Below are positions 5,410-41,957 of a stretch of DNA of 64,000 nt, one piece after another (position 1 is the first letter of the stretch; each line of letters begins with the position of its first letter). The DNA is from a virus. Its lineage: Duplodnaviria > Heunggongvirae > Uroviricota > Caudoviricetes. Location of the stretch: the IMG/VR virus record IMGVR_UViG_3300029511_000167; one strand, given 5' to 3'. Under the pieces are notes generated by a model. The model searched no databases and was not told the DNA's origin. It saw only the letters and a program-made list of their open reading frames with translations. The translations under genes were made by a program, and so were the position numbers.

Positions 5410-5855
5410 ATCATTTTTCTTCCAATAGTCATGATCTGAAAGCAAAAATAATCATAAACATCCGTATAGGAATGGATCTCTTTTTGCTTAGCGTATTCAA
5501 TAGATTTAACGGTTGCATATGGGTCAATGTAGTTCATGGGATGCAGTTCCATATCCTGCTCAATTTCTTCTTCCAGAAGCTTTGTCCGCAGTTCTGCCAC
5601 TTTTTCCTGAATGGGACGAACCTTTTCATTATCTTCCACTAGCTCAAACACATTTGTTCCAATTAATTTCTTTTTTCCTTCTAGAATATCTCTTGCAATT
5701 GTTTTCTTTTCGCTTAGAGAAATTTCATCTGTTTCCAGCACAGTCAACAACAGTTCTTCTGACTTTTCATAAGCCTTATTTTCATGCCAGAACCATGTCC
5801 TTGCAAGGTCACAGATAAATTCTCCACAAATGCTCCAGTTTAAGGTTTTCATCAT
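5406..5855 (-). CDS. hypothetical protein
   Basis: ORF track. The start was chosen at MMKTLNW, preceded by the RBS agagggaaaac. Confidence 0.5.
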   Translation of the reverse strand: MMKTLNWSICGEFICDLARTWFWHENKAYEKSEELLLTVLETDEISLSEKKTIARDILEGKKKLIGTNVFELVEDNEKVRPIQEKVAELRTKLLEEEIEQDMELHPMNYIDPYATVKSIEYAKQKEIHSYTDVYDYFCFQIMTIGRKMI

Positions 5856-6082
5856 TTTGTTTTCCCTCTTTTCTTCTTTGCTGTAAATAGTATGGTGCGA
5901 TGATGGGCAAAACAATGATCTAAAATAGAGAAAAAACAAAAAAACCGGCATATGCCGGTTTCATGTTTTAATCAAACTATGTCAATGTGTACTTATTTTT
6001 CACTCAGTTGCCCAATAGAATTCTCCAACTTCTGGAGTTATTGTCTTCTCGTTTTTGTTTACCCACATAATGTTTTCCTTTC

Positions 6083-6568
6083 TTAATCGGAATCTGTTTC
6101 CAGCGCAATGTATCCGTTAAATACAAAGGTTGTATAACTCATATTTTTACAAAATGATTCCATGCCATAGTAATCTGATAAGGTCTGGTGGTCAATTCCT
6201 GCTGCGGAGACTGTTTTTGGTTCAATTAAAATACCATCACAGGTTCTATATTGTCTGACATATTCACAGATCTGCTGTTCCAAATTTTTAAACTCCCAGG
6301 ATTCAACAAAATCTTCAATGTCAAAAAAGGAACCGGTACAATAGCCAATAGTCAAAAGGTAGGATAATTTTTCTTCCTGTGTATCATAAATGCAGTGCTC
6401 TTTTCCAAAATACTGAAGTGGGACGATGATATAGCTTCCCATCACGCCATCTATTTTTCTTTTCTTAATGGTTAAATTAGGCCGTTCCAATCCTTTTTCA
6501 GAAATAGCCAGAGAATGTACACTGGAACTATTGGTTTCAAATACGTGTCTTCTTATTTTTCTTATCAT
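6083..6568 (-). CDS. hypothetical protein
   Basis: 161-aa ORF with no recognisable motif. A terminator hairpin lies downstream at 5942-5962. Confidence 0.5.
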   Translation of the reverse strand: MIRKIRRHVFETNSSSVHSLAISEKGLERPNLTIKKRKIDGVMGSYIIVPLQYFGKEHCIYDTQEEKLSYLLTIGYCTGSFFDIEDFVESWEFKNLEQQICEYVRQYRTCDGILIEPKTVSAAGIDHQTLSDYYGMESFCKNMSYTTFVFNGYIALETDSD

Positions 6569-6582
6569 CCGCTCATTCCTTT

Positions 6583-7230
6583 CTAGAAATTAACAATCGC
6601 AGCCGGGTCTCCATCCGGGTCTGCAGCAGAATAGACTCTTCCTACAATACAGTGCCTGTTTGGGTCGTATTCTACGATTACACCTGGTTCTCCTGGCGCA
6701 TCTGTCAGAGTTGCGATTCCAGGATATTCTTTATCTTTCATAATCTTTGCAGATATTGTACCTTTTGGTGTTTTGACTATTAGCTCCTGCTGTTTATCAA
6801 TAACAGCTGCTTCATCAAGAGGAATATCTTTCCACTCAGCATCTTCTACAATGGAACATTTTAGTCCCTGTTCATCTTGAATATATACTTTTAGCGTCCT
6901 GCCATCTGGCAAAATGACTTCTATCCCTTCTCTATCTTCTTCAGAAAATCCAAACGCTTCGAATCTAGCTTGGTGTTTCAAACCGTCAGAGTCTTTTACC
7001 ATAGCTATACTGCTGGATACATGTTCGGTTGCATATAAAGCATTTTCTGAGATGCTCCAATCTTCTGCGACTTTTTTTATGGCAGAATCCGGATCCGTAG
7101 CATATACTACATCCAAAAGAAGGTCCTGGGAAACATCCATCCACTTATTTTCTTCTGTCGTATCATTTAACTCAACAGTACAAATCTGAGCATCTCTCAT
7201 ATGTTTTGCATATACATTGTATTCTTTCAT
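6583..7230 (-). CDS. hypothetical protein
   Basis: 215-aa ORF with non-repetitive composition. Confidence 0.5.
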   Translation of the reverse strand: MKEYNVYAKHMRDAQICTVELNDTTEENKWMDVSQDLLLDVVYATDPDSAIKKVAEDWSISENALYATEHVSSSIAMVKDSDGLKHQARFEAFGFSEEDREGIEVILPDGRTLKVYIQDEQGLKCSIVEDAEWKDIPLDEAAVIDKQQELIVKTPKGTISAKIMKDKEYPGIATLTDAPGEPGVIVEYDPNRHCIVGRVYSAADPDGDPAAIVNF

Positions 7231-7250
7231 ATTTAATAATCCTTTCCTTT

Positions 7251-8144
7251 TCAGTTTCTGACGATCTGGAACATATCGGTTGCGTCATTTAAAAGCTTAA
7301 ATCTTTCATTTTCAGGAGCCGTTGAGCTTTTTGCAAAGGTCCTTTCTACTGCATCAATATAGTAAGTAAAGGAAGCATCTTCTCCCATGTAAAATTCTTC
7401 CCACTCTTCTTCTGTGAGCCTTTCTTTTATTTCCATCTGTTCAATGGCTAAATTGTCAAAGCTGATGGTATGAAATTTCCCAACATAGTCGCTTAAATTA
7501 TTTCTTAGCCACTGCATCTTCCTCTGAATTGCTTCTGTTTCTGCTTTATAGTAGCGTTCTCCTCTGCGAAGTTTTTTATATCCAAGAATCAGCAATTTGA
7601 TATTTTGGTTACTTAAAGCATCCAGTTCTTTTTCTGTAACAAGCCCTGCAATCACATGAACAACGGCATTTGGGAAATCCTTTACCATCTGAATCAATTC
7701 TTTTGTTGGCTTTGAAAGGGAAATTCCAAGCCCGTAAATGAGATTTTCTTTTACCAGCCTTTGGATGAATTTTCGGTTTTGTTCAAAATGGATTTGGTTT
7801 ACGGTGATATTGGTAATTACCTTCTGCTTTTTTAAAATATGTAAAAGCTCCACCAGGTCCGGATGCTCTAACACATTTCCACCACCGATGGCCACTTCCT
7901 GATAAGGCTTTAATGTATAGATAAAATCTTCCTTTAAAATATCCGCATGCTTTCCGGTTGCGCTACTGCTCTCATGACAAAACGGACAATTTGCACCAGT
8001 ACAGCGGTTGGTAATCTTTAAATCAATATTTTCAGCAAACTGAGGATGAAAGGTTCCTTCCTCCAGTTCTCTTATTTTTGTTCCATCTTCAAAAATCTTT
8101 ACAGTATAATTTCCATTTTTGTATTTTGCTAATTGTCGAATCAT
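7251..8144 (-). CDS. radical SAM domain protein (variant CX4CX2C cluster motif), paralog of 23027..23878
   Basis: ITNRCTGANCPFCHE near the N-terminus and an AIGGGNVLEHPDLVELL (GGE-type) motif. Start at MIRQLAKYK with RBS aaaaggagac. Confidence 0.6.
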   Translation of the reverse strand: MIRQLAKYKNGNYTVKIFEDGTKIRELEEGTFHPQFAENIDLKITNRCTGANCPFCHESSSATGKHADILKEDFIYTLKPYQEVAIGGGNVLEHPDLVELLHILKKQKVITNITVNQIHFEQNRKFIQRLVKENLIYGLGISLSKPTKELIQMVKDFPNAVVHVIAGLVTEKELDALSNQNIKLLILGYKKLRRGERYYKAETEAIQRKMQWLRNNLSDYVGKFHTISFDNLAIEQMEIKERLTEEEWEEFYMGEDASFTYYIDAVERTFAKSSTAPENERFKLLNDATDMFQIVRN

Positions 8145-8194
8145 AGATGAGTCTCCTTTTTTCTTTGATACCATTAGCATGTCGTTTTTTGAGT

Positions 8195-8221
8195 AAAAAA
8201 AAGAGACCGAAGTCTCTTTTC
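8195..8221. terminator. rho-independent terminator (hairpin gagaccgaagtctc)
   Basis: aaaaaaaagagaccgaagtctcttttcg. The identical 26-mer recurs at 18784-18811. Confidence 0.65.
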
Positions 8222-8236
8222 GAATTAATTTAGCTT

Positions 8237-8665
8237 CTATTTTTCCAAAAACTCCTGAAAAGACAGCATCTCTTCTGAGCATTCATTCATCAGCAATTTT
8301 TTAACTTCATATTGTAAAGAAATATTTCGTGGATCGATGGCAATAACTTGCTGCGCTGATACTCCGCGTTCTCTTAAGTCATTTCTATAAACCGATAATA
8401 ACTCTTCATCTGAGGTACATTCATAGTTTTCATCCGAATCATGATAATGAATCATTCCGACATAGAGAGAATTATCATTCCATAGACTTTCTAATGTTTG
8501 ATACACTTTTCCGCATTTTTCACAAACAAAATCGCCAGTAAATCCTGTTGAAATAAGCTTCTCTTCTTTTTTAATATTATAGTTCCCATCAATTACCACA
8601 TTTTGAACAACAGTTCTTTTTGTTTTAAATTTTGGGCATCCGCATTTCGAACAACGTTTCACCAT
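8237..8665 (-). CDS. zinc-ribbon hypothetical protein
   Basis: 142 aa with CSKCGC...CEKCG Cys pairs. Confidence 0.5.
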   Translation of the reverse strand: MVKRCSKCGCPKFKTKRTVVQNVVIDGNYNIKKEEKLISTGFTGDFVCEKCGKVYQTLESLWNDNSLYVGMIHYHDSDENYECTSDEELLSVYRNDLRERGVSAQQVIAIDPRNISLQYEVKKLLMNECSEEMLSFQEFLEK

Positions 8666-8677
8666 ATTCGCTCCTTT

Positions 8678-9475
8678 TTAATGTTCTGTATTCAGCTGCT
8701 CTTTCATTTTTACAAAGAAATCTCTGGTCTCATTTCTGTTTTTAAGCATTGCTGCTTTCTCATATTCTGAATATACATATGGTTCGTTCTTATTTAAATT
8801 ATTTAAGAAAGACAAGTCGATCTCGTCTTCCTCCGTTTCTTCTTCTTTTTTTGCCTTTTCACTGGCATCATCCAGGGTATCACTTTCTTCACCTATTGAT
8901 CGTACCCGTTTTCTTGAAGTATCATAATCAAAGCCGAACCAGGTCATTTCATATAAAATATTGGCGGCCACTTGGATTTCTCCATAGGTCCGAATTAAAG
9001 AATGAGGTATCTTATAAGTGATAACAGCTTTCCAGTCTTCCGCCATAAAATTATAGGTTGTAATTGGAAGCATTGCCTGTTTCATATCTTCCAATGTTTT
9101 GCAGACAGGAAACTGCTCTGGATCAAACTGTTTTAACTCCGCTTCATCAAATACGAACGTATCGTAACCGGTTGGGACTTCTAGGCCAGTCTCTTCTTCC
9201 AATTCATCATAGTATGGAACAATTCCTATGATGCAGGATTCGGTTTCTTTTCTTTGCTTCAGATTGCATATCTCACTGATGCACGTTTGTATTTTTCCTT
9301 TAAGGTCACTTGTTCCACAACTTAATTTTTCTTCCTTTGAAAGACTGGACGTATTGTGCTCCCGGTCGTAGCGCTCTATGATTTTTTCTGTACTGAAAAA
9401 GTTCGATACAAAATAATCGGCCAGTGTTTCTGGCTTTAATGCTTTAAATAGTTCCTGCACTGTAATGCTCTTCAT
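8678..9475 (-). CDS. hypothetical acidic protein
   Basis: 265-aa ORF. Motif agtatg lies at 9531-9536, upstream of the start. Confidence 0.5.
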   Translation of the reverse strand: MKSITVQELFKALKPETLADYFVSNFFSTEKIIERYDREHNTSSLSKEEKLSCGTSDLKGKIQTCISEICNLKQRKETESCIIGIVPYYDELEEETGLEVPTGYDTFVFDEAELKQFDPEQFPVCKTLEDMKQAMLPITTYNFMAEDWKAVITYKIPHSLIRTYGEIQVAANILYEMTWFGFDYDTSRKRVRSIGEESDTLDDASEKAKKEEETEEDEIDLSFLNNLNKNEPYVYSEYEKAAMLKNRNETRDFFVKMKEQLNTEH

Positions 9476-11477: not shown

Positions 11478-11507
11478 AAGAAAAACCGGTTAATACCGGT
11501 TTTTTTA
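11478..11507. terminator. bidirectional rho-independent terminator
   Basis: accggttaataccggt hairpin with an A-run before and a T-run after. It separates the plus-strand small ORFs from the convergent minus-strand tRNA array. Confidence 0.7.
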
Positions 11508-11579
11508 TGTTTCTGAAGAGATTCGAACTCTTAATGCCCAGTCCGTAGCAGGGCGGTTTTTCCATTAGCCTACAGAAAC
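11508..11579 (-). tRNA. tRNA-Arg(ACG)-like, with mismatches in the D and anticodon stems
   Basis: Acceptor GTTTCTG/CAGAAAC, T-arm AAGAG-TTCGAAT-CTCTT, anticodon loop CTACGGA. The anticodon stem CCCTG/CTGGG has one T-T mismatch. The D-stem is imperfect. Confidence 0.5.
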
Positions 11580-11583
11580 AAAC

Positions 11584-11663
11584 TGCCCATGAAGGGATTC
11601 AAACCCTTATGCGTTCGCGCTTGATTTTGAGTCAAGTATGTATACCAATTCCATCACATGGGC
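11584..11663 (-). tRNA. tRNA-Leu(CAA)
   Basis: Acceptor GCCCATG/CATGGGC, anticodon arm CTTGA-CTCAAAA-TCAAG, 11-nt variable arm, T-arm AAGGG-TTTGAAT-CCCTT. Confidence 0.8.
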
Positions 11664-11981
11664 ATGGACTACGATGATAGCTGGCAGCTTGAGATTCTTG
11701 TCTCCGAGATGAAAGCCCAAATTTTTAAAAAGATGAGGCGTGGAGTTACTCGCATTTAGGATTTCTTTAAATACAGGCTCACCACTTTGCACAGATAAGG
11801 CTTAAAAGGCCCTGTTTTTTTACAGCCATACTTTTACCATCAGCACATAGTTTTTCAGGTCCTGTCTGCTCCGCAGTTCATAGTTGTTAATTCCCTGCGT
11901 CTTTGCTTTCTACCAAATGTCCGTTTTGTGCTGTTTCCGAAACACCTCGTAGTTTTTTTGCCAAAGAGACCTCATCTTTAG

Positions 11982-12053
11982 AGCACCGTGTCAGAGTCGA
12001 ACTGACCAATTATGGTTTTGCAGACCATCTCCATTCCGCATGGATTACGATGC
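11982..12053 (-). tRNA. tRNA-Cys(GCA)
   Basis: Acceptor GCATCGT/ACGGTGC (one G-U pair), D-stem TCCA/TGGA, anticodon arm ATGGT-CTGCAAA-ACCAT, T-arm GTCAG-TTCGACT-CTGAC, discriminator U. Confidence 0.8.
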
Positions 12054-12072
12054 GCATATAAATATATTAAAC

Positions 12073-12152
12073 TGCCCGTGAAGGGATTCGAACCCTTATG
12101 CTTTCGCGCTTGATCCTAAGTCAAGTGTGTATACCAATTCCACCACACGGAC
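12073..12152 (-). tRNA. tRNA-Leu(TAG)
   Basis: Near-duplicate of the Leu(CAA) backbone with anticodon loop CTTAGGA. Acceptor GTCCGTG/CACGGGC. Confidence 0.8.
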
Positions 12153-12169
12153 ATGAGATGCAATGATAA

Positions 12170-12241
12170 TAGGCAGCCTGAGATTTGAGCTCAGAAGACT
12201 GGTTTTGGAGATCAGCATGTTACCGTTACATCAAACCACCC
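12170..12241 (-). tRNA. tRNA-Trp(CCA)-like, degenerate (acceptor stem has 3 Watson-Crick and 4 G-U pairs)
   Basis: Anticodon loop CTCCAAA (the typical Trp loop), T-arm CTGAG-CTCAAAT-CTCAG, D-stem ATGT/ACAT. The acceptor GGGTGGT/GGCTGCC pairs only with wobbles. It may be a pseudo-tRNA. Confidence 0.4.
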
Positions 12242-12246
12242 AAACA

Positions 12247-12319
12247 TGTGCCTAGCGGGAATTGAACCCGCGACCTCCGGATTAAAAGTCCGCTGCTCTT
12301 CCGACTGAGCTACAGGCAC
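12247..12319 (-). tRNA. tRNA-Lys(TTT)
   Basis: Acceptor GTGCCTG/TAGGCAC, D-arm TAGCTCAGTCGGAAGAGCA, anticodon loop CTTTTAA, T-arm GCGGG-TTCAATT-CCCGC. Confidence 0.8.
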
Positions 12320-12324
12320 ATAAA

Positions 12325-12397
12325 TGACCTCGGCGGGAATTGAACCCGGCATCTGAAGCTTGAAAGGCTTCTGTCCTAACCACTAGACCACGAGGCC
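12325..12397 (-). tRNA. tRNA-Glu(TTC)
   Basis: Acceptor GGCCTCG/CGAGGTC, anticodon arm GAAGC-CTTTCAA-GCTTC, T-arm GCCGG-GTTCAAT-TCCCGC. Confidence 0.8.
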
Positions 12398-12401
12398 GAA
12401 A

Positions 12402-12473
12402 TACGGCTGGTTGGATTTGAACCAACGAATACAGGAGTCAAAGTCCTGTGCCTTACCTCTTGGCGACAACCGT
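12402..12473 (-). tRNA. tRNA-Gln(TTG)
   Basis: Acceptor ACGGTTG/CAGCCGT, D-arm TCGCCAAGAGGTAAGGCA, anticodon arm CAGGA-CTTTGAC-TCCTG, T-arm GTTGG-TTCAAAT-CCAAC. Confidence 0.8.
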
Positions 12474-12479
12474 ATAAGA

Positions 12480-12563
12480 TACTCCTGAAGGGACTTGAAC
12501 CCTCACGAATTTGCATTCAACGGATTTTAAGTCCGTAGCGTCTGCCAATTCCGCCACAGGAGC
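12480..12563 (-). tRNA. tRNA-Leu(TAA)
   Basis: D-arm TGGCGGAATTGGCAGACGC, anticodon arm ACGGA-CTTAAAA-TCCGT, long variable arm, T-arm with TTCAAGT loop. 84 nt. Confidence 0.8.
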
Positions 12564-12897
12564 AAAAAAATCGGGCTGCACAAAGCAGCCCACGTCAGTA
12601 TGTATAGATTCAAAAAGAGAATTTGAAAATTATAACAGATACTGTGCTACGAAAGGACTTTGTGCGTTTTTAGCATCGACAAAGAGCCGCTCTTGTTTCA
12701 GAGTAGTTTTCTGTTCTTCTGATTTTAAGCAAACGTACAATCTTTTCATATTTTTTCAGCGGAGAAACCCATGGGCTTGCCCGTGGAAGGAACCGCCTCT
12801 AACCTACCTTTCTTTGTTCTATCAGATAATTAGTGTTTAATTCCTCACTCCGAAGAGTGGTTCATATTAACTCCTTTTTCTTGTTTCTTTAAGTCTC

Positions 12898-18821: not shown

Positions 18822-19727
18822 TTATGAGCGCTCTGGTTCTGTATTTGATAAGCTTTCTGAATGGTTCCTGGTTTCTAATGACAGCTCCTTCTTGGTATCA
18901 GAAATCATCCCATCCAGTGCACTTAAAGGTTCTTTCGTATACTCATAGAGAAAATCTTTAAGAACTGAGTAATACTTTGCCTGCTCTTTTTCAAAAAACT
19001 GGCAAAGTTCTTTGTACTCTTTTTTGGTTTGAGCCGTATTGAGTGCATGATAGTATTCAAGCTTATTCTCATCCTGAATAATAACGGGAATGATGTCAGA
19101 CGCAAGGCATTCCCGAAGCAGCAGCAGGCGGCCGGTTCTTCCGTTTCCATCTTGAAATGGATGAATGGTTTCATATGCAGCGTGAAACCTAGCCAAGCCT
19201 TCCACTGTATGTTTCTTTTCCGGGTCATAGTTTTGTAACAGTTCTTTCATCCGGTCGGAAACCTCATCTGGCCTTGCTGTTTTAATATTTGCAACCTGGT
19301 TTAATCGATTCTTATACTCTCCTACTGGATAACCATTTGCCAAATCTTCGAAGACTCCTGATTTTAATCGAAAATGAAATTTCTTTATCAGGTCTTCGGA
19401 TAGCGGTTCATGAAGAGTCTTAAGCATCTCATTGAACATAGCGAAATGTCCTGTCATCTCTTCAATGTCTTTCGCCTTAAAAATTTCTCCATCAGCCAGT
19501 ATCGTTCCTGTATCAAACAGAGACGCGGTCTGATCTGGAGTTAAGGTACTGCCTTCAATCTTATTGGAGTTATATGCCATTAGTTTTTGTGTTTTTGCAT
19601 AAATTCCACTCCGATCCATCTTTTCATGTTCAATTTTGAATCGTTCTTTTAACTGCTTTACCAGCGTTTCTTCATCATAAGTAGATAACTCATGAAAAGA
19701 GTTTTCTAAGATTTTATTAATATTCAT
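18822..19727 (-). CDS. fic: Fic family protein (AMPylase-type, with SxxxEG inhibitory motif)
   Basis: Canonical Fic motif HPFQDGNGRTGR. N-terminal SNKIEGS matches the [S/T]xxxE[G/N] autoinhibitory helix. Confidence 0.8.
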   Translation of the reverse strand: MNINKILENSFHELSTYDEETLVKQLKERFKIEHEKMDRSGIYAKTQKLMAYNSNKIEGSTLTPDQTASLFDTGTILADGEIFKAKDIEEMTGHFAMFNEMLKTLHEPLSEDLIKKFHFRLKSGVFEDLANGYPVGEYKNRLNQVANIKTARPDEVSDRMKELLQNYDPEKKHTVEGLARFHAAYETIHPFQDGNGRTGRLLLLRECLASDIIPVIIQDENKLEYYHALNTAQTKKEYKELCQFFEKEQAKYYSVLKDFLYEYTKEPLSALDGMISDTKKELSLETRNHSESLSNTEPERS

Positions 19728-21322: not shown

Positions 21323-22090
21323 TTAGTTAAGCCTAACAATCTGTTCATATAGCAAAATATCCTTATCGTTCATCGCATAGTTCAGGTGCATATGTCCCAT
21401 GAACCATTTTCTGTATTCCATTTTCTGTCTTATTTCTTCCAGATATTTTGTTAGAATGTCCTGTTCATAGAGACCTCGCCCAAGTAAAGCAATCATACTG
21501 GCCGATGGGCTGTGTGTTAGAATGAAGTCTACCTGATACTGATTCTTTTCAAGGTTTTTTCTTCCATTTTCCATTTCTTCCTCAGTTGGAAGCTCTTCTT
21601 CCCACCAGGAAAGTCCCTTTACCCGGAATCTGTATTTTCCTTCTTTTTCAAGTTTCTTAGCTTTTTCCTTCCATTTTTCATCCTTCCCATCTAGAATGCC
21701 ATCAGAAATGTCATGGGAGGAGGCTCCGCCAAAGGCAAAGAATTTCTTTCCTTCTAGGGTATAAATCTCTCCTCTTCTAAGCCTTACCACATTGGGTCTG
21801 ATTTCATTGACAAGGCCGCCATTCCATTCTTTTAATGGGAACTGGTTAAGTCTTGGGATATTATCATGATTCCCATCGATAAATGCTGTGGTAAACGGTT
21901 TCTCTTTTAACCAGTTTAAGTTATAATTTTCTTTTTTTGTTTCTTTGGGATCCCAGATGAGACCAAAATCGCCTAACTGTATCATGGTATTTTCTGCCGG
22001 ATCTATTCCAAACTCTTTCTGTTCGTAAAAAATTTTAGAGGAGAACCTGGATGGATCTCCATGAATATCTCCTGTTACATAAATGCCCAT
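21323..22090 (-). CDS. calcineurin-like metallophosphoesterase
   Basis: Motifs GDIHGD, GDFG, GNHD and GHMH. A terminator agggccttaagccct lies downstream. Confidence 0.7.
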   Translation of the reverse strand: MGIYVTGDIHGDPSRFSSKIFYEQKEFGIDPAENTMIQLGDFGLIWDPKETKKENYNLNWLKEKPFTTAFIDGNHDNIPRLNQFPLKEWNGGLVNEIRPNVVRLRRGEIYTLEGKKFFAFGGASSHDISDGILDGKDEKWKEKAKKLEKEGKYRFRVKGLSWWEEELPTEEEMENGRKNLEKNQYQVDFILTHSPSASMIALLGRGLYEQDILTKYLEEIRQKMEYRKWFMGHMHLNYAMNDKDILLYEQIVRLN

Positions 22091-27028: not shown

Positions 27029-27764
27029 ATAGCCATAGGTAAACGTTTGATATTATCTCCGGCTTTTCCCTGGCTCCACACCGTGCGTGAGAGTTTCCTG
27101 CTCACACGGCGCTCCATCGTTAGTAAAACTTTTTTCGATGATTTCGTTTTCCTAACGACTTGAGGCTGTTGCTCCATTCTCATTACAAGAACTTCATCGC
27201 TCGTGCCTCTACTTTCACAACGATTAAAATAAGTTATATTTTTCAATTTTCCTTATTAACGCTTCTCTGGATTTTGGACTCCTCTTCGTTCGTTGCTTCC
27301 CTTGTTCCAATAAACCTATCTGTGCATATACTTTTAGGCCGTTCCTTTAACCCTGAGTGCTTGAATATGCCTGTAACATATTAAGGACTTTCATAGCGAA
27401 AATTTTTACTAATCCTCACACTCTCCACCTTTTGTGGAACCTACCATTTCTAATAGGTCATGCTATAGAGTTGTACCCTCGGAACTTCGTCTCTGTTTTT
27501 CACACATTCTAGCCATGAGTATTTTATAGAACTCCGAACTATCAAATACAAATTCCACCTCTGGAATCCTTTCGTGTATTTCTACTTACGGTATTCTTCA
27601 TTCGACTTCATCGAGCTTTATACAGACAATCTTCCAAACGATTGCTGCATATCGAATATTAAGTATGACGTTTCAAGGCGTTACCCTATCATTCCATCAT
27701 TCGGTTTATCAGTTCAATAATTTAAAATTATTGGCTAAACTTTTCATTTAGCAACAAGTCGCAC
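27029..27764 (-). mobile_element. ORF-less group II intron (about 736 nt) interrupting the flotillin gene
   Basis: The 5' end is GTGCG. A domain V hairpin GAGCGCCGTGTGAGCAGGAAACTCTCACGCACGGTGT lies about 40 nt from the 3' end. The intron ends in ...GGCTAT (AY). Splicing restores ...LQGNMRE-IIGTLSLKAINTDRDSFSDQVMEKASKDMAKLGIEIL, colinear with FloT. Confidence 0.75.
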
Positions 27765-28309: not shown

Positions 28310-29098
28310 ATGTATCAGATTAAGAATTATTTGAATAATGATGATGTTAAAATCATCGACAAACTTGGGCCCTTTCAGGTCATTGAATATCAAAGAGACT
28401 TGAGTGTAACACCGGAAAGTGCTTTGTTTGCTTACTACTGCAATGCAATGAATGTCCGAAAACGTCAGGTGGTTTGCGATTTAAAACAGGCGAATGTTAC
28501 TATTCAGGCAGGTGCTATGCAATGGATGCTTGGAAATGTTGCAGCGACCACTGGCTTAAAAGGTGTGGGAGATCTGTTTGGAAAGGCAATCCGTGGAAAG
28601 GCGACGGGAGAAGCTGCTATTAAGCCAGAATATAAGGGAGACGGTCTTTTGGTATTGGAACCTACTTATCGCCATATCCTTCTCATTGATGTGTCTGAGT
28701 GGAATGGTGGAATTGTTCTTGATGACGGGCTTTTTCTTGCCTGCGACTCAAGCCTTCAGCACAAAGCTATTATGCGAAGCAATTTAAGTTCTGCTGTTGC
28801 TGGTGGAGAAGGACTCTTTAATCTGAGCATCAACGGATCCGGTGTGGTTTGCCTAGAGTCTCAGGTCCCAAAAGAAGAGCTGATTGAAGTATCTCTGGAA
28901 AACGATGTAATTAAAATTGATGGAAATATGGCGATTGCTTGGAGCCGGAGTTTGGAATTTACCGTGGAGCGTTCTGGGAAAACACTGCTTGGCTCTGCTG
29001 CTTCTGGCGAAGGATTAGTAAATGTCTATCGCGGAACCGGAAAAATTCTAATGGCTCCAACTGCCAGACCTCCAGTTGTCACATTCTCAAAACAATAA
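28310..29098 (+). CDS. AIM24/DUF124 family protein
   Basis: 262 aa with VTIQAGAMQWMLGNV, GGEGLFNLSINGSGVVCLES and GEGLVNVYRGTGKILMAP blocks typical of TIGR00266/AIM24. Confidence 0.7.
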   Translation: MYQIKNYLNNDDVKIIDKLGPFQVIEYQRDLSVTPESALFAYYCNAMNVRKRQVVCDLKQANVTIQAGAMQWMLGNVAATTGLKGVGDLFGKAIRGKATGEAAIKPEYKGDGLLVLEPTYRHILLIDVSEWNGGIVLDDGLFLACDSSLQHKAIMRSNLSSAVAGGEGLFNLSINGSGVVCLESQVPKEELIEVSLENDVIKIDGNMAIAWSRSLEFTVERSGKTLLGSAASGEGLVNVYRGTGKILMAPTARPPVVTFSKQ

Positions 29099-29125
29099 AA
29101 AAAGAGCCATTAGGCTCTTTTTTGT
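29098..29125. terminator. bidirectional terminator of the agagcc-NNNN-ggctct family
   Basis: aaaaaaagagccattaggctcttttttg. Sibling hairpins lie at 53993-54024, 59760-59790 and 60672-60700. Confidence 0.65.
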
Positions 29126-29823
29126 TAGATTCGTTTGCAAATATCTTTCTGATAGGCTTCCTTGAAACCATACAAATCAACGATGGCTTCTGATTCAGCC
29201 TGAAAATAGCAAATGATTCTTTTTTTGGGAATCTGGATGGTCCAGAGTTCTCCTTCGTTGTCAAAGCGTGTGGCAAAACGTTCTGCGATTTCTTTTTCCA
29301 AGCTCCAGGATAATGCCTTTGTGTTTTTCTGATTGTATTTTGACACACCACGATATAATGTGACCATATCTGGAAGATTTCTTATGAAATTCAACTCTTC
29401 TGCATTCATTAGATTTTCCTTCTTAGCTTTTTTAAACCAGGAAACCAATGTTTTTGTAGATACTCCACCGTTTGAATTTGGCCATTCAATCGATTGCCAA
29501 AAATTCTTTAAGACTCTTCCCAGCTCTGCTTCATCCAAATCATCCACAATATATTTAAGAAACGTCAAAATGTAGGGTTTATGAAACAGCATCAGAAGCT
29601 GAATCAGATCTTCAGATTCATTAATTTTTGCCTGTAGATTATCTCGCCAAAGTTTTACATCTTCTTTTTCATGTAGATCCAATGTCTTATACGTTCCTTG
29701 AGCGAAGATAGCAGTCAGCCACATATTGGTAAACGGATGAGTTGCAATGAAGGAAAAATCAGTTTCCTTGATGTCCAATTGCAAAAAAACATTTGCCATT
29801 TTCTTTATTTTTGCTAAATTCAT
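29125..29823 (-). CDS. hypothetical protein with a possible minimal R-S-E ADP-ribosyltransferase-like motif in its C-terminal third
   Basis: TLYRG ... LSWSL ... QAESEA is arranged like the Arg / S-x-S / (Q)ExE motifs of ADP-ribosyltransferases. It lies 8 nt downstream of the macrodomain gene. This is a weak, motif-only call. Confidence 0.3.
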   Translation of the reverse strand: MNLAKIKKMANVFLQLDIKETDFSFIATHPFTNMWLTAIFAQGTYKTLDLHEKEDVKLWRDNLQAKINESEDLIQLLMLFHKPYILTFLKYIVDDLDEAELGRVLKNFWQSIEWPNSNGGVSTKTLVSWFKKAKKENLMNAEELNFIRNLPDMVTLYRGVSKYNQKNTKALSWSLEKEIAERFATRFDNEGELWTIQIPKKRIICYFQAESEAIVDLYGFKEAYQKDICKRI

Positions 29824-29831
29824 AATTCTCC

Positions 29832-30611
29832 TTATTTTTCAAATACATTTCGAAATGCATTCAGATTCGGGCCTGACGGAATCGCAAATACTACGGTGTC
29901 AAAGCTTTGTCTCTGCTTTAATGCCTCTGCGAAACACTCTGCTGTTTCTTCTGCTGCTTGCCCAAATACACCACATCCGAATGCGCCTAGAATCAGTATA
30001 TCAACTTTTTTGGAATTTGCAATATCAACCACAAACTGAATCCTGTCTTTTAATGCTTTTAGATTTTCTTCGTCTGATACATGCTGATACGTTTGTGCCG
30101 CGTGTTTGTTTGGCGCAGCGCAGGTAATAACATCGCAATGAACAGATTTTCCATTTCGTTCAAATCGCACATTTGGCGTATACAGCGCCCGATTGGTATA
30201 GAGAGCCTTGTTTTTGTGTGCCTGATTCCACTCATAATAGCTTTCTTTTTTTGAAAGCACGTTATAGAGAAATGACTCATGGCATAAGGACTCTTCCTGG
30301 GCAGAACTTCCATTTAAGAACATGCCACCCGGATTCTTATAGGAGGCAAAATTTAATACAGCAGTTTTTCCATCCTTTGCGTGTCTCATGATACTTTCTA
30401 CACTGTCGGATTCTTCCAAGAGAATTTTCATTCTTCCTTTTTCATCCATTCTTTTTGCTGTTTTTTCAAATGGTACTGCTTTTTCGGTTGCTGTTAATAC
30501 GATTGTCTCTGCGGCTGCCTTTGCAATTTCGTCTGCATGAGTTTCTTCCATTAATTTCGTATGAAGAACGGCCTTCTTTGCACGTTCTTCCTTGTTTTTC
30601 CAATAGCTCAT
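29832..30611 (-). CDS. macrodomain protein of the bacterial PARG-like / TIGR02452 (DUF2263) type
   Basis: LNFASYKNPGGMFLNGSSAQEESLCHESFLY contains the PARG signature GG-X8-QEE. C-terminal ILGAFGCGVFGQ. Confidence 0.65.
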   Translation of the reverse strand: MSYWKNKEERAKKAVLHTKLMEETHADEIAKAAAETIVLTATEKAVPFEKTAKRMDEKGRMKILLEESDSVESIMRHAKDGKTAVLNFASYKNPGGMFLNGSSAQEESLCHESFLYNVLSKKESYYEWNQAHKNKALYTNRALYTPNVRFERNGKSVHCDVITCAAPNKHAAQTYQHVSDEENLKALKDRIQFVVDIANSKKVDILILGAFGCGVFGQAAEETAECFAEALKQRQSFDTVVFAIPSGPNLNAFRNVFEK

Positions 30612-30622
30612 ATGGTTTCTCC

Positions 30623-32803
30623 TTATTTTTCTTCTGTTTTCTGTTTTCTTTTTTCATAAAGTTTCCTGACATGGCAGATATTGCTGCTTGGATCGTTAAG
30701 CTGAATGATTCCTTTTTCCAGTAATTCTTTTGCAAATACAATGAATCTGAAATCATCTGCTGATAATGCAGCCATATTTAGCAGCTGCAGCCGCCCAAGC
30801 AGGCCGCGTCTGCGTTTCCATGTCTTATAGTAGTTTAATTTGAGTTTGAACATGAAGTGGTTTGTATCTTCAAGCACAAACCCTTCAATGGGCTTTCCAT
30901 TATAGGTGTATGTACCATTCTGATCCGATTTTAGCAGGTTCTGATACCAGGCATCAAATTCATCGTAGGTGTTAAACTTAAATACCAGCTTTTTCGGCTG
31001 CAGATGGTAGGCAGCTGCAAAGGCCAATAGCTCTTCATAGCTTTTTTTCTGGAAATCAAACTCGTTTTTAATGATATCCAGAAGATAGACCTCGCTGTCT
31101 TCATAATCGATGATATGCGGGTCGTTTACCTGGTCCACACACTCAAAGACCAGCGTTTCAGAATGTTCTTTCAGATACTTCTTTAATGATTCTATCGTTT
31201 CTTCTGAAAGTTTCTTATAAAGCATATCTTTAAAACAGCCTGCGGCTTTTCCCGTCGGATCTGATTTTGTGGTGATAAACAGCTCATCTTTTTCTTTGTT
31301 AAAGCTTACCATACCAAGAAATCCATTTTCTTTAACATACGCTTCTACTGGAAATACCAGTTTTTCTTTCAGATTATGATACATGGTTTCTTCTACTTCG
31401 TCTACAGCGAAAAACTTATCATATCCACGACAGACCAGTTCTTCTGTTTTTGTATTAAGGTAAAGTCCACGGGCCTTGACCGTTCGTTCATTCCATACCC
31501 GGTTATTGAAAGCTTCCCTTGAAAAATTAAAAGAAGAAATCGAATCAAACTTTTTTTCTTTAATGTACGGGTCTTTTCTTAAGGTTTCAATTGCATCATG
31601 AACTGTTGAAAAATCAGTTTCCGGCTTTCGGTATACGGTGTTTCTAATTTCAGTTGTTTCTATCCCAGCAGCAGAGACAACAGCAGCCCGCAAGAAGCCG
31701 CCAAGTTCTACTTTTCCTTCTAGATTGTAGTTTCGATTGGTAGAATGAACTGGATAGCCAAAATTTCGATGTCCGTGAATCTGGTAGATATGATTGGGCA
31801 TGGATGCATCAAACATTTCTTCGGCTTCTTTTACATCAGGATAACCGCCAACACCGTGGATCATCTGTTCGGTAGAAAGAAAGATTGGATTTCCAGGAAT
31901 GGTACTTACACCGCCATGGCAGCCAAAGACAACTTTATCGTGATAGCGGTAGTATACACACTGAGCAAGCTTTCGATAAAAAATACGTACTTCTTTTTTT
32001 GAAATACCTGCTGCTTCCAGTTCTTTTGCCGTATGCTCCTCAAATTCTTTTGACGGAGTATGCTCATTATGTGCCCATAGGTGTAACCACCGCTCATGAT
32101 TTCCTTCCAGCAGCAGAACATTTTCTCTTTTTGAAAGGTTCATCATAAGTTTTAAAGTGTTCACATTATCTGGGCCGCGATCCAGATAGTCGCCATGGAA
32201 AATGTAAAACTCATCTTCTTTCAGTCCGCCTTTAAGATAACACTGCAATGCGTCAAAGCACCCGTGAATATCTCCAATGTGGTGGATCTTCTTATATTTA
32301 CTGAAATCCAGCGGCATAAGCAGCAGTTTTTCAAACTCATCTGGCTTGATAAATGGAAAATCTGCATAAAACGGCAGCTGCAGCCACTTACAAAACTTTT
32401 CCATCACCTCATCTGGCACTTGTTCTACCTGGCTGCGGCTACGGTTGCGGCGCATCGCATCTGCGAGGCTAATATCCGTAAAATCCACACCTATAATGCG
32501 GTAGCGATAGGTTTTTGCAAGGGTGCGATACTTATTTACATCTTTCTGAAGAATATTAGTGGCGTCAATGATTAAAAATTCACCTCGCGCCATTCTCTTT
32601 TCTGCAATCTTTGTTAGAAGCTCCCACACTTCCTTATCGTTCATTCGGGATGTTTTAATCCTTCCATCAATACCCAACACTGGGCCTTCATAAAGTCTTC
32701 GAATAGTATCTGAGCTTAATGTATAAGGCTCCAGCTGGTGTTCTTTTATCCAGGTTGTTTTTCCAGAAGCTGGAATTCCTCTAAGTAATACTAGTGTTCT
32801 CAT
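30623..32803 (-). CDS. pnkp: polynucleotide kinase-phosphatase Pnkp with C-terminal ligase-like nucleotidyltransferase domain (RNA end-healing/sealing enzyme)
   Basis: N-terminal P-loop LRGIPASGKTT, as in a 5' kinase. Central calcineurin-type phosphoesterase motifs IGDIHGC, GDYLDRGP and GNHE. C-terminal covalent-NTase-like motifs EGFVLED and FKLKL. No hen1 gene is adjacent. Confidence 0.75.
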   Translation of the reverse strand: MRTLVLLRGIPASGKTTWIKEHQLEPYTLSSDTIRRLYEGPVLGIDGRIKTSRMNDKEVWELLTKIAEKRMARGEFLIIDATNILQKDVNKYRTLAKTYRYRIIGVDFTDISLADAMRRNRSRSQVEQVPDEVMEKFCKWLQLPFYADFPFIKPDEFEKLLLMPLDFSKYKKIHHIGDIHGCFDALQCYLKGGLKEDEFYIFHGDYLDRGPDNVNTLKLMMNLSKRENVLLLEGNHERWLHLWAHNEHTPSKEFEEHTAKELEAAGISKKEVRIFYRKLAQCVYYRYHDKVVFGCHGGVSTIPGNPIFLSTEQMIHGVGGYPDVKEAEEMFDASMPNHIYQIHGHRNFGYPVHSTNRNYNLEGKVELGGFLRAAVVSAAGIETTEIRNTVYRKPETDFSTVHDAIETLRKDPYIKEKKFDSISSFNFSREAFNNRVWNERTVKARGLYLNTKTEELVCRGYDKFFAVDEVEETMYHNLKEKLVFPVEAYVKENGFLGMVSFNKEKDELFITTKSDPTGKAAGCFKDMLYKKLSEETIESLKKYLKEHSETLVFECVDQVNDPHIIDYEDSEVYLLDIIKNEFDFQKKSYEELLAFAAAYHLQPKKLVFKFNTYDEFDAWYQNLLKSDQNGTYTYNGKPIEGFVLEDTNHFMFKLKLNYYKTWKRRRGLLGRLQLLNMAALSADDFRFIVFAKELLEKGIIQLNDPSSNICHVRKLYEKRKQKTEEK

Positions 32804-32884
32804 ATTTCTTCCTCCATGTTTGATTTTCTCTTATAATGTGGAAAAAAAAGAAAAGATAAAGAAAAAAGAGAGGAAGTTCCTCTC

Positions 32885-33472
32885 TTAAATATATTCTCCT
32901 TTGATATGACCGGATACGATTCCGTTTACTTCCAGAAATGCCATCCACTTTTCTACGGCTTCATATACCTGCACGGCAACCTTGTTTGGCTCTGAGTAGC
33001 TTTCTTTTGATAACATTGCCTGATACTCATAAGGCTGACAAAAATCATCATCCAGTACATCAATCCGAAAATCGGTTGGATCGTCTTTATTAATGGAAAT
33101 GGAAAAACTGATACTGGATACGATTCCACGGCAGAAATACCAGTATCCTTCTCTATAATCCGTAAAACCAAGGGTCCGCATTTCTTCTTCTGGCAGTAAA
33201 TGAATCTGAATCTTTTTGTTGATACCACGATCATTTACCTCAAAATCTGGAAACGTCAGATATGGTTTCTTCTTTTCAATCTTCATAGGTTCTGGCTGTG
33301 GCTCATCCCACCATCCTTCTATCTTTGAATAGGTTCGATTGGAATCTGCATCTTTCCACTGATTGTTTCCCATATATCTACAGGCAACTACATTTGGTTT
33401 TCCAAATTTAATAGTCGTTGTCCAATATACGTTTCCCTTTTTTGCTTCTTTTTCGTTTGCTTTCATCCACAT
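32885..33472 (-). CDS. hypothetical protein
   Basis: 195-aa ORF. Confidence 0.5.
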   Translation of the reverse strand: MWMKANEKEAKKGNVYWTTTIKFGKPNVVACRYMGNNQWKDADSNRTYSKIEGWWDEPQPEPMKIEKKKPYLTFPDFEVNDRGINKKIQIHLLPEEEMRTLGFTDYREGYWYFCRGIVSSISFSISINKDDPTDFRIDVLDDDFCQPYEYQAMLSKESYSEPNKVAVQVYEAVEKWMAFLEVNGIVSGHIKGEYI

Positions 33473-33499: not shown

Positions 33500-34690
33500 C
33501 TACATTTTTTCTGGTATTTCCTTGGAAAATTTCTTATTAAAAATCTTGTTTTGCAAGGACACTGGCGATATTGGATAGGAAATGTCATTTAAGATCTCAT
33601 AGCTTTCATGAAACTTATCACACATTTCTTTCGCCTGCACTTCATTAAATGCTTCGAACTTAATTTTTAAGTCAAATCGTCCTTCTCTGATAAGTGCTGG
33701 ATCCAATCGGTCTATATGGTTCGTTGTGGCTAATATGATTGTATTTTCTGGAGACATTGGACCATCCAGAAACTGAAGCATTGCATTTACCTTTGCTTCG
33801 TCTTCTTTTGATGATTCTTCCCTGTCCTTTGGCAGCAGCTCATCAAGTTCTTCCATAACAACGATGTTAATTCGTTTTCCCTGTTTGAAATCCAGATCCT
33901 GGCTGTTCTGATAGATGTATCGCAAATCCCGCTGCAGTAGATCGATGTTTTTTGACAAATCCAGGTATGTCACCTGATTCTGGCATTCATAGGAATCGCT
34001 GGCATAGCTGATAATCGCTTTTACGACACTTGATTTTCCAGTTCCTGGTTCTCCATATAGAAGAATTCCAAGCTTATACGGGATTCCATAATGCTGGAAT
34101 GTTGCATGGTTTTTTCTAAAATTGTCCAGGGAGGTTAAGATCTTCTTTTTATCTTTTAAAATAATCTCATCAAAGGACTTATACGGAAAATATATGTATC
34201 CACCACCTGACTGATAATTCGCACTGATGAATCGTCCCTGGTCTCTGTTTTTCTTCATTTTTGCTTTAATGAAGGTAATGAGCCGATGGGCGTGATAGTA
34301 GGCATTCAGTCCAATAAAGGTTACTGACACATAGCTCAGTTCTTCTCTATATTTACAGTCATCTTCCAGCTCTCTTCTATCAAACCGGATGCTGCAATAA
34401 GTCATATCATCCAGATAGAATGAAAATCTGGTTGGCCTTAATGATACTTCAAGCTTTGATGGATTTCCGCTTGCGATATCCAGGTAGGTATTTCCATCCC
34501 GGTTTCGCTTCTTATAAACATGCTTAATGTATTTTTCTACATATCTTGAATATACTTCGCTGCTGAAATTTACCGTAGCGCAAAAGCGTCGACTTGCTTT
34601 AGAACGAACATAAACCGCAGCTGCCTTTCCGGCTGCAGATGCAGAGGCTGCTGTATATTCTTTCAATAATTTAGATATGAGTGGATTCAA
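33500..34690 (-). CDS. AAA+ ATPase (BCS1-like architecture: N-terminal domain plus single AAA module)
   Basis: Walker A GILLYGEPGTGKSS. Sensor/arginine-finger region ATTNHIDRLDPALIREGRFD. Confidence 0.7.
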   Translation of the reverse strand: MNPLISKLLKEYTAASASAAGKAAAVYVRSKASRRFCATVNFSSEVYSRYVEKYIKHVYKKRNRDGNTYLDIASGNPSKLEVSLRPTRFSFYLDDMTYCSIRFDRRELEDDCKYREELSYVSVTFIGLNAYYHAHRLITFIKAKMKKNRDQGRFISANYQSGGGYIYFPYKSFDEIILKDKKKILTSLDNFRKNHATFQHYGIPYKLGILLYGEPGTGKSSVVKAIISYASDSYECQNQVTYLDLSKNIDLLQRDLRYIYQNSQDLDFKQGKRINIVVMEELDELLPKDREESSKEDEAKVNAMLQFLDGPMSPENTIILATTNHIDRLDPALIREGRFDLKIKFEAFNEVQAKEMCDKFHESYEILNDISYPISPVSLQNKIFNKKFSKEIPEKM

Positions 34691-41839: not shown

Positions 41840-41920
41840 GTTAACGATGCGAATTGGTCAGCAAGCGGTCTCGAAAACTGTCGGTCTTTGGACTTGTGGG
41901 TTCGAATCCCACCGTTAACG
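41840..41920 (+). other. tRNA-like element (perfect 7-bp acceptor pairing plus canonical T-arm, but no cloverleaf D/anticodon arms); possible att core
   Basis: 5' GTTAACG ... GTGGG-TTCGAAT-CCCAC-CGTTAAC-G, followed by the terminator aaaaaaaagcaccaaacaggtgcttttt at 41924-41960. Confidence 0.35.
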
Positions 41921-41957
41921 CGCAAAAAAAAGCACCAAACAGGTGCTTTTTCTTTTT

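Follow-up and report, generated by a model that had tools for sequence, protein, structure and literature searches.

A 64,000-nt stretch of DNA from a virus of the class Caudoviricetes (IMG/VR record IMGVR_UViG_3300029511_000167), hereafter the window, contains three adjacent genes predicted to encode an RNA repair enzyme, a macrodomain related to poly(ADP-ribose) glycohydrolase (PARG) and a protein with the fold of an ADP-ribosyltransferase (ART). The locus raises the question of whether ADP-ribosylation and RNA repair are coupled in this element. The reading towards which we lean is that of a co-transcribed cassette in which a phage RNA repair enzyme is accompanied by a writer/eraser pair composed of an ART of a new family and the PARG. 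The predicted kinase-phosphatase-ligase is of an ordinary phage type and the trio is restricted to one narrow lineage; what is new is the R-S-E family of ART and the combination of otherwise known modules. Coordinates follow the numbering of the window, and (-) denotes the minus strand.

Gene organization

Open reading frame (ORF) calls gave three co-oriented genes on the minus strand encoding proteins of 726, 259 and 232 amino acids (aa), with 11 nt between the first and second genes and 8 nt between the second and third, exactly the coordinates, strand and spacing claimed in an earlier annotation of this DNA (the original prediction). A GGAG-type Shine-Dalgarno sequence is located 6-8 nt 5' of the ATG in all three genes, and terminator-like hairpins lie at both edges of the row.

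32866-32886, minus strand: terminator-like hairpin at the upstream edge of the trio, with a 9-bp stem and T-run, just after a 195-aa ORF and 63 nt before the start of the 726-aa gene
30623-32803, minus strand: predicted 726-aa trifunctional RNA end-healing and sealing enzyme, member of phrog_8238 (Pfam, NCBIfam, PHROGs, tblastn and motifs)
29832-30611, minus strand: 259-aa bacterial-type PARG-like macrodomain (PF10021, 5.4e-27; TIGR02452, 6e-56)
29125-29823, minus strand: 232-aa protein with a predicted ART-fold domain
29098-29123, minus strand: terminator-like hairpin at the downstream edge of the trio, with an 11-bp stem and T-run, directly after the stop codon of the 232-aa gene and shared with a convergent AIM24 gene

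The original prediction held that internal terminators would argue against a common transcript. A terminator scan inside the trio revealed nothing convincing, the candidates within the 726-aa gene having poor T-tails, and the flanking hairpins are present; the scan was, however, no richer than that of shuffled sequence. The results suggest that the three genes are a single transcription unit, and operon status is put no higher than a suggestion because the numbers of promoter and terminator sites do not exceed those in shuffled sequence. The writer/eraser pair had also been described as fused to the RNA enzyme; the genes adjoin without fusion.

The 232-aa protein and its family

The 232-aa protein is divided into two domains.

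29377-29823, minus strand: N-terminal domain (aa 1-149), a small beta-sheet plus helical bundle with conserved H29-P30-F31, Y84, W109, E113, F130 and M139
29128-29376, minus strand: C-terminal domain (aa ~150-232) with a predicted minimal ART fold of six strands and one helix

The AlphaFold2 model, obtained with the family alignment (pLDDT 96.4, pTM 0.90), places R158 at the end of strand 1 (153-160), S172-W-S as strand 2 (172-174), a helix at 177-184 and E210-x-E212 at the start of strand 5 (212-215). The motifs Y157-R158-G159, S172-W173-S174 and E210-S-E212, which the original prediction had singled out as an R-S-E triad, are present and conserved across the family. In 128 aligned members R158, G159, A180 and R186 are invariant, and H29, P30, Y84, W109, E113, F130, M139, Y157, S172, W173, F183, E210 and E212 are at least 90% conserved; over 128-155 members the values are 100% for R158, 98% for S172, 97% for W173, 90% for T/S174, 95% for E210 and 94% for E212. 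The R-S-ExE motifs were retained in 10 of 11 diverse contexts of the family. Since they are near-invariant in 128-155 members, the motifs are not a chance occurrence, and the C-terminus of ~80 residues is confidently predicted to adopt a minimal ADP-ribosyltransferase fold with the canonical R-S-E layout. The closest folds are those of Tre toxins and AcrIF11. Thus, the ART fold anticipated for 29125-29823 was obtained in the structural model, while a Pfam match was not. The N-terminal domain is assumed to serve in target recognition.

A search of 1.84 billion representative proteins with the family profile recovered 5565 clusters with E<=1e-3, of which 481 reach E<=1e-30; almost all of the members are 220-250 aa long and align over their full length. 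The family thereby comprises thousands of clusters at 50% identity without a Pfam or NCBIfam model, distributed among phages and conjugative elements of gut Firmicutes and Actinobacteria. The 232-aa protein has no Pfam, NCBIfam or PADLOC match and is assigned to PHROG 4776, annotated as 'unknown function'. Searches of PDB sequences with the protein and with its 128-member profile returned noise only, a BFVD search returned uncharacterised phage proteins only, and a Pfam scan of ten longer members revealed no added domain and no informative fusions. Two of the 128 members touch PF03496, with an E value of only 0.087, and profiles of the named ART families (for example PF03496, PF01129 and Alt/VIP2) did not place the protein in any of them. 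No description of the family, or of an R-S-E ART in such a cassette, was found in the literature. These results indicate that the 232-aa proteins constitute a large, previously unnamed family that is novel within the R-S-E kind of ART.

Two more specific identities were rejected. A Tpt1/KptA identity is contradicted by the lack of a PF01885 match and by motifs that are R-S-E and not H-H-h. An ART-PolyVal identity (Tox-ART-HYD2 clade) was also ruled out, the members of that clade being defined by an H-Y-D active site and embedded in polyvalent proteins (PMC5512222) whereas the family described here is R-S-E and free-standing. The Tre toxins (TreX, TreTu, Tre1, TreThr) differ in that they are C-terminal cargo of Rhs proteins or the type VI secretion system and are accompanied by non-enzymatic immunity proteins, whereas the window ART is free-standing, has a conserved N-terminal domain of 150 residues and is borne by phages and conjugative elements; immunity to Tre1 is of the ARH type. 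Homology of the 232-aa protein to Tre toxins is not detectable at the sequence level. AcrIF11 differs in having neither the N-terminal domain nor a cognate macrodomain.

The protein might also be ART-like in fold and yet not a transferase, acting instead as a binder of NAD+ or ADP-ribose, as an NADase or as a structural mimic. The family has no tie at the sequence level to any ART family, and its Arg and Ser motifs are separated by only 14 residues in a domain of unusually small size. We nonetheless consider this explanation hardly credible, given that the Arg, the Ser and both Glu residues are at least 94% conserved across the family and its contexts and are located in the canonical secondary-structure elements.

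The 259-aa macrodomain

The 259-aa protein scored well above the cutoffs for both PF10021 (95.4 bits versus 23.5) and TIGR02452 (189.9 bits versus 50). The signature GG-X8-QEE is located at aa 95-107 and a GAFGCG diphosphate-binding Gly-rich loop at 209. Searches against solved structures returned the PARG of Deinococcus radiodurans (DrPARG; 5zdb, 3e-25) and that of T. curvata (3sig, 5e-19) with the signature aligned; GGMFLNGSSAQEE (residues 95-107) aligns with GGGFLGGAQAQEE of DrPARG, and GAFGCGVF aligns with GAWGCGVF. Homologues were found in Lak megaphages and Bacillus phage G. These results agree with the assignment of the protein to the DUF2263/TIGR02452 macrodomains with a PARG signature in the original prediction, and indicate an active-looking bacterial-type PARG, judged by its intact catalytic motifs.

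Bacterial-type PARGs (SCO0909 and DRB0099) are the only hydrolases that reverse the ADP-ribosylation of RNA 2'-OH groups by RhsP2 (Lu et al. 2025, PMC11833690), and they also remove 5'-phosphate-linked ADP-ribose on RNA (PMC11833690). In D. radiodurans the PARG gene lies in an operon composed of DRB0100 (ligase), DRB0099 (bacterial-type PARG) and DRB0098 (HD phosphatase plus polynucleotide kinase), and the PARG has been proposed to free RNA or DNA ends blocked by ADP-ribose so that they can be healed and sealed (PMC11833690). That operon and the trio share a bacterial-type PARG beside ligase, 5'-kinase and phosphatase activities. They differ in that in the window the three repair activities are fused in one protein, with a metallophosphatase in place of the HD phosphatase and a ligase of another family; the window also has an ART gene, which the D. 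radiodurans operon does not, and a mobile-element setting. The claim that the gene arrangement is not a described operon type was thus overstated, in view of this operon and of phage sets that combine KptA, Macro and ligase (PMC7824862, PMC9503650).

The 726-aa kinase-phosphatase-ligase

The domains recognized in the 726-aa protein are the following.

32372-32794, minus strand: predicted P-loop polynucleotide 5'-kinase domain, aa 4-144 (PF13671, AAA_33, 7.6e-21; Clostridium thermocellum Pnkp kinase 4gp7 at 2.8e-5)
31754-32290, minus strand: predicted calcineurin-type binuclear metallophosphoesterase domain, aa ~172-350 (PF00149, Metallophos, 4.4e-14 over aa 172-298; PP1/PP2A/ApaH-type matches)
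30827-31477, minus strand: predicted ATP-dependent RNA ligase domain of the T4 Rnl1/fungal Trl1 family, aa 443-659 (PF09511, RNA_lig_T4_1, 4e-42)

The kinase motifs are GIPASGKT (9-16) and SSD (30-32), and those of the phosphatase are GDIHG (177), GDYLDRG (204), GNHE (234), CHGG (295) and HGH (343). The ligase carries KENG at 491 (motif I), FEC at 553, EGFV at 640 (motif IV) and FKLK at 652 (motif V). The domain composition of the original prediction is therefore upheld by PF13671, PF00149 and PF09511 together with all of the motifs, and the ligase motif I, K491-E-N-G, which it did not list, is also present. The PF09511 score was 145 bits versus a gathering cutoff of 28.3, with model positions 1-227 of 227 aligned; the best matches of the ligase domain in the PDB were the fungal Trl1 ligase domains 9qw7 and 6n0v (1.5e-12 to 1e-8), and phrog_562, the T4 gp63-type RNA ligases, was matched at 3e-21.

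The original prediction had taken the protein for a bacterial Pnkp that lacks Hen1. The bacterial equivalog TIGR04075 scored 76.4 bits versus a cutoff of 750 and aligned to residues 3-263 only, and a Pnkp-type ligase model is absent among the four Pfam families matched. The protein is instead matched over its full length by phrog_8238, 'RNA ligase' (E 3.2e-195, residues 1-673 versus profile positions 1-684 of 737). A tblastn search of INPHARED identified homologues in 157 phage records, of which 112 cover at least 80% of the length at 37-42% identity; the carriers include Staphylococcus (Kayvirus-like), SPbeta-like Bacillus, Alicyclobacillus, Streptomyces and Lactobacillus phages. A Pnkp that lost Hen1 is thus ruled out by the TIGR04075 score and the Rnl1/Trl1-type ligase, and the protein is predicted to be a common phage fusion in which T4-like healing and sealing activities are combined with an Rnl1-type ligase. 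The result corrects a likely annotation trap, in that a kinase-phosphatase-ligase protein of this kind might be mistaken for a Hen1-less bacterial Pnkp. No biochemical paper on the fused phage family was found in the literature.

The enzyme shares with the Pnkp/Hen1 system of C. thermocellum the order of an N-terminal P-loop 5'-kinase, a central binuclear metallophosphoesterase and a C-terminal adenylyltransferase/ligase. It differs in the ligase, which in C. thermocellum is Hen1-activated and in the window is of the Rnl1/Trl1 type (PF09511) without Hen1, and in length, TIGR04075 comprising 851 positions versus 726 aa. With Pnkp and Rnl1 of phage T4 it shares the logic of healing and sealing against anticodon-nuclease cuts, although T4 has two proteins and a HAD-type phosphatase whereas the window enzyme is a single protein. 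The absence of hen1 is expected, because the enzyme belongs to a phage family with an Rnl1/Trl1-type ligase and is not a bacterial Pnkp. No hen1 adjoins the 726-aa gene, the neighbours being the PARG-type and ART-fold genes. The broader claim that hen1 is missing from the window stands in part: a regular expression for motif I of S-adenosylmethionine methyltransferases found none in six frames, although the expression is crude and was the sole check for the 40-64 kb part, and the Pfam records for the contigs of relatives, which span about half of the window, list no methyltransferase domain.

Genomic contexts of the ART family

The contexts of the family were sampled in 14 viral loci, in 80 metagenome loci representing 8 clusters and in eight contigs with precomputed Pfam annotation. 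Among the 137 non-redundant proteins encoded within three genes of the ART, ArdA was found five times and C5 DNA methylase four times, followed by LPD28, D12 methylase, DUF3846, Toprim/DUF3991 and Macro (2 each) and by TrbL (1). In loci L029 and L033 the ART-family gene is the first inside an integrated element, beside chromosomal genes. The contexts are the signature of entry-phase, anti-restriction regions in conjugative elements and phages, as described previously (PMC5512222, PMC11541004). If active, the 232-aa family would represent a widespread new ADP-ribosylating effector for mobile elements establishing in a new host.

A macrodomain gene is located directly upstream of the ART in three lineages, being of the PARG type in the window and of the PF01661 Macro type in the other two (L004/L005 and L036). 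The ARTs of these lineages are mutually only 42-44% identical, and because the type of macrodomain changes between lineages the results argue for a functional pair of ART and macrodomain rather than inherited synteny. In L004 (positions 5127-6915; GCA_028748485.1, JAMHJC010000876.1) consecutive genes encode a YAcAr SLOG-domain product (PF10686, 36 bits), a macrodomain of the Macro type (PF01661, 37 bits) and the ART, so that this ART family is also the centre of an ADP-ribose cassette of another type. The two macrodomain types beside the ART offer ready-made erasers for biochemical work. A macrodomain is adjacent in 3 of ~20 distinct ART contexts.

RNA-related genes also occur near members of the family. 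The Faith1 member (gp123) lies beside tRNA-Lys(UUU) within a tRNA cluster, and in L034 RtcB is encoded 1.8 kb upstream of the ART-family gene. In L031/L032, a phage-like contig with homing endonucleases that interrupt nrdD, a HEPN gene of 139 codons' product length (139 aa; 5585-6004) overlaps the start of the ART-family gene (6001-6717) by 4 nt, which suggests translational coupling of a HEPN RNase-type domain with the ART. In L003 RelB/YoeB and PIN pairs adjoin the ART-family gene.

The short spacing from macrodomain to ART, the interbacterial toxins among the fold relatives and the occurrence of the family among toxin-antitoxin genes in L003 are features that a DarTG-like toxin-antitoxin or abortive-infection pair would show, with the ART as toxin and the PARG as enzymatic antitoxin, stabilising the element or excluding phages. 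Most members, however, have neither a macrodomain nor a conserved small partner, and a lethal toxin could not persist in that way. The N-terminal 150 residues are conserved family-wide, unlike those of polymorphic toxins, the obligate pairing of ART and macrodomain that marks DarTG was found in only 3 of the ~20 contexts, and none of the three proteins has a PADLOC match. DarT furthermore belongs to a clade of the H-Y-E type, whereas the window ART is R-S-E and its macrodomain is of the PARG type and optional in the family; DarG is a fused antitoxin. A toxin-antitoxin role is accordingly judged very improbable.

The three genes and their neighbours are conserved together in close relatives (85-94% identity). 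Neither PARG nor ART was found beside the kinase-phosphatase-ligase homologue of Alicyclobacillus phage KKP_3916, and the same holds for the other phages with a phrog_8238 member that were inspected. Neither an ART nor a ligase is encoded around the PARG homologues of phage G, Lak-C1 and two uncultured phages, and a stand-alone PPP phosphatase near the PARG homologue of MT835651 is the sole such case among the PARG neighbourhoods inspected. A conserved three-gene module is ruled out, since the neighbourhoods of homologues in other phages are without the partner genes. A blastn search of the 3.7-kb trio region against phages gave one 111-bp match; an alignment-based search for related loci gave 42 pattern matches and no true relative, and a degenerate DNA pattern gave 5 loci.

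Split ORFs were observed in two loci. In L007 the kinase-phosphatase-ligase is divided into a 419-aa kinase-phosphatase ORF (7020-8279) and a 253-aa ligase ORF (8440-9201), and in the viral contig L017/L010 the ART-family gene is divided in two (5986-6333 and 6367-6723). The splits could be sequencing errors or decay.

Proposed function of the trio

The organization of the genes, their domain families with intact motifs, the ART fold and the size and contexts of the ART family, all given above, are the basis on which we infer enzymatic activities, a target for the ART and a functional coupling of the trio. The kinase of the 726-aa enzyme would phosphorylate 5'-OH ends, its metallophosphatase would strip 2',3'-cyclic or 3'-phosphate, and the Rnl1/Trl1-type ligase would reseal the break with ATP and with no need of Hen1, the likely task being to undo tRNA cuts made by host anticodon nucleases. 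The 232-aa ART would mono-ADP-ribosylate a host macromolecule from NAD+ soon after entry of the element and, with the 259-aa PARG, would constitute a writer/eraser (or effector/safeguard) pair. This pairing is proposed because a macrodomain directly upstream of the ART recurs in three diverged lineages with two macrodomain types. The coupling to the repair enzyme would be lineage-specific, in parallel with the ligase-PARG-kinase/phosphatase operon of D. radiodurans.

Several observations weigh against the proposed cassette. The complete trio was seen only in relatives at least 85% identical, no INPHARED phage record is shared by all three families, and sequence profiles do not connect the 232-aa family with any ART family already known. 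As stated above, the scans for promoters and terminators yield no more sites than shuffled sequence. Approximately 17 of the 20 distinct ART contexts are without a macrodomain or RNA-repair gene nearby, and therefore the pairing is optional and the link to RNA may be a coincidence among clustered accessory genes.

An alternative explanation is that three unrelated accessory genes lie side by side, the ART modifying an arginine of a host protein (RNA polymerase, for example, or a protein of defence or division), as do T4 Alt, AcrIF11 and Tre1, while the PARG counters host ADP-ribose or NAD-derived defence chemistry and the repair enzyme independently fixes tRNA. The nearest folds, the Tre toxins and AcrIF11, are indeed protein-modifying, members of the ART family mostly stand alone, with ArdA and methylases as neighbours, and the trio is confined to one clade. 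Arginine-specific ARTs typically have an E-x-E motif (PMC11606950), and phage domains that process ADP-ribose are proposed to act mainly against soluble ADP-ribose derivatives (PMC9503650). Without coupling it is hard to explain that a macrodomain of either of two types lies upstream of the ART in three lineages with ARTs only distantly alike, and the 8-11 nt gaps and flanking terminators suggest one transcript. We therefore regard three independent genes as unlikely, though far from negligible, and retain the coupled cassette as the preferred reading.

A further possibility is a full NAD+-dependent tRNA repair of the fungal style, in which the cyclic phosphate would be opened to a 2'-PO4, the break sealed in the manner of Trl1, the junction 2'-PO4 moved to NAD+ by the ART as a non-orthologous Tpt1/KptA, and the ADP-ribose-phosphate by-product processed by the macrodomain. 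The best solved relatives of the ligase domain are Trl1 ligases, and repair sets of KptA, Macro, 2H and RNA ligase have been described in phages (Iyer et al.; PMC7824862, PMC9503650). It has also been reported that reprogramming can enable phosphoesterases of the CthPnkp type to support splicing of the Trl1 type (PMC1920235). The jumbo-phage sets, however, contain KptA, whereas the window ART has no PF01885 match and is R-S-E rather than H-H-h, and the annotated neighbours of the trio include no identified 2H phosphoesterase. The active site of Tpt1 is an Arg-His-Arg-Arg tetrad, which the conserved R-S-E-x-E residues do not resemble. Most members of the ART family are found in entry regions of conjugative elements with no ligase nearby, and the phosphatase that usually acts on Appr-1''-p is not a bacterial-type PARG. 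Phosphatases of the CthPnkp type normally take the phosphate off fully and leave no 2'-PO4 (PMC3675462). Fungal-style repair is, on these grounds, considered about as improbable as a toxin-antitoxin role.

Returning to the writer/eraser pair, a nucleic acid, probably RNA or tRNA, is placed ahead of protein arginine as the target of the ART only tentatively and with low confidence. The preference follows from the partners of the ART, which are macrodomains, and from the PARG types among them, which cleave ribose-2'-O- and 5'-phosphate-linked ADP-ribose on RNA. To our knowledge, macrodomains do not cleave arginine-ADP-ribose. The E-x-E motif, typical as it is of arginine-specific protein ARTs, fits poorly with a macrodomain eraser and counts against the proposed pair. 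Among R-S-E ARTs, small Tre toxins are able to modify the anticodon loops of tRNAs (PMC13617354).

In a more specific form, which we regard as improbable, the ART would mark RNA itself, for example the 2'-OH or terminal phosphate of tRNA near an anticodon-loop break, in a reversible and protective manner. The 2'-O-ADP-ribose would block the 2'-OH nucleophile needed by metal-independent anticodon nucleases and would be an erasable counterpart of the 2'-O-methylation by Hen1, the PARG erasing the mark and the kinase-phosphatase-ligase healing and sealing. Members of the ART family beside ArdA, in the entry regions of conjugative elements, would then pre-empt tRNA-cleaving back-up defences triggered by anti-restriction proteins. 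Given the locus and the reversal of RNA ADP-ribosylation by bacterial PARGs, three small recombinant proteins would suffice to test directly whether tRNA conflicts between phage and host involve reversible ADP-ribosylation of RNA.

The surrounding element

The window has 34-43% G+C and almost all of its genes are on the minus strand, mostly without Pfam matches; several of the proteins match PHROG families, and no virion genes were identified among the ten window ORFs scanned. The exact three proteins were found on 16-45 contigs of public assemblies, two of which are 3.25 and 3.51 Mb long, and a 693-aa protein of the window has no record in the contig index. Since the exact proteins are located on contigs of more than 3 Mb, chromosomal integration is probable rather than only a free phage genome, and we take the window to belong to a large phage-like element that is integrated in a gut Firmicute of low G+C content.

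A 355-aa RlaP RNA-ligase-associated Pol-beta nucleotidyltransferase (PF10127, 40 bits versus a cutoff of 23) is encoded at 60684-61751 (-), ~28 kb from the ligase gene. ARAGORN identified a cluster of eight tRNAs at 11507-12564 (-), comprising Arg-ACG, Leu-CAA, Cys, Leu-TAG, Lys-TTT, Glu, Gln and Leu-TAA, and Rfam gave a weak ninth tRNA-like match at 12171-12240. A separate tRNA-Ser(CGA) is located at 41840-41921 (+). RlaP and the eight-tRNA cluster fit a tRNA-conflict toolkit in the same element, such as that described for large phages (PMC7824862).

At 33500-34690 (-), two genes upstream of the trio, a 396-aa AAA+ ATPase is encoded that matches phrog_7485 (1.7e-39) and, weakly, the IetA/IteA anti-phage proteins (PADLOC, 2e-17; NCBIfam, 50 bits versus a cutoff of 510). 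The 195-aa protein, which has no matches, and a terminator-like hairpin lie between this gene and the trio. By synteny with L006/L120, using the Pfam annotation of these relatives, a Fic (AMPylation) protein and a second stand-alone metallophosphatase are placed at 18822-19727 and 21323-22090, and therefore further protein- or nucleotide-modifying accessory genes would lie a few kb away in the gene row.

A flotillin/SPFH gene (Band_7 and Flot) is interrupted by an ORF-less group II intron of 736 nt at 27029-27764 (-), with exons at 28158-27765 and 27028-25779. The intron was matched by RF02004 (domains D1-D4) at 27523-27717 (171 bits) and by RF00029 at 27029-27114 (46 bits). Relatives contain an intron-free 547-aa flotillin gene (L006, 11706-13349), the insertion being located between gene positions 394 and 395.

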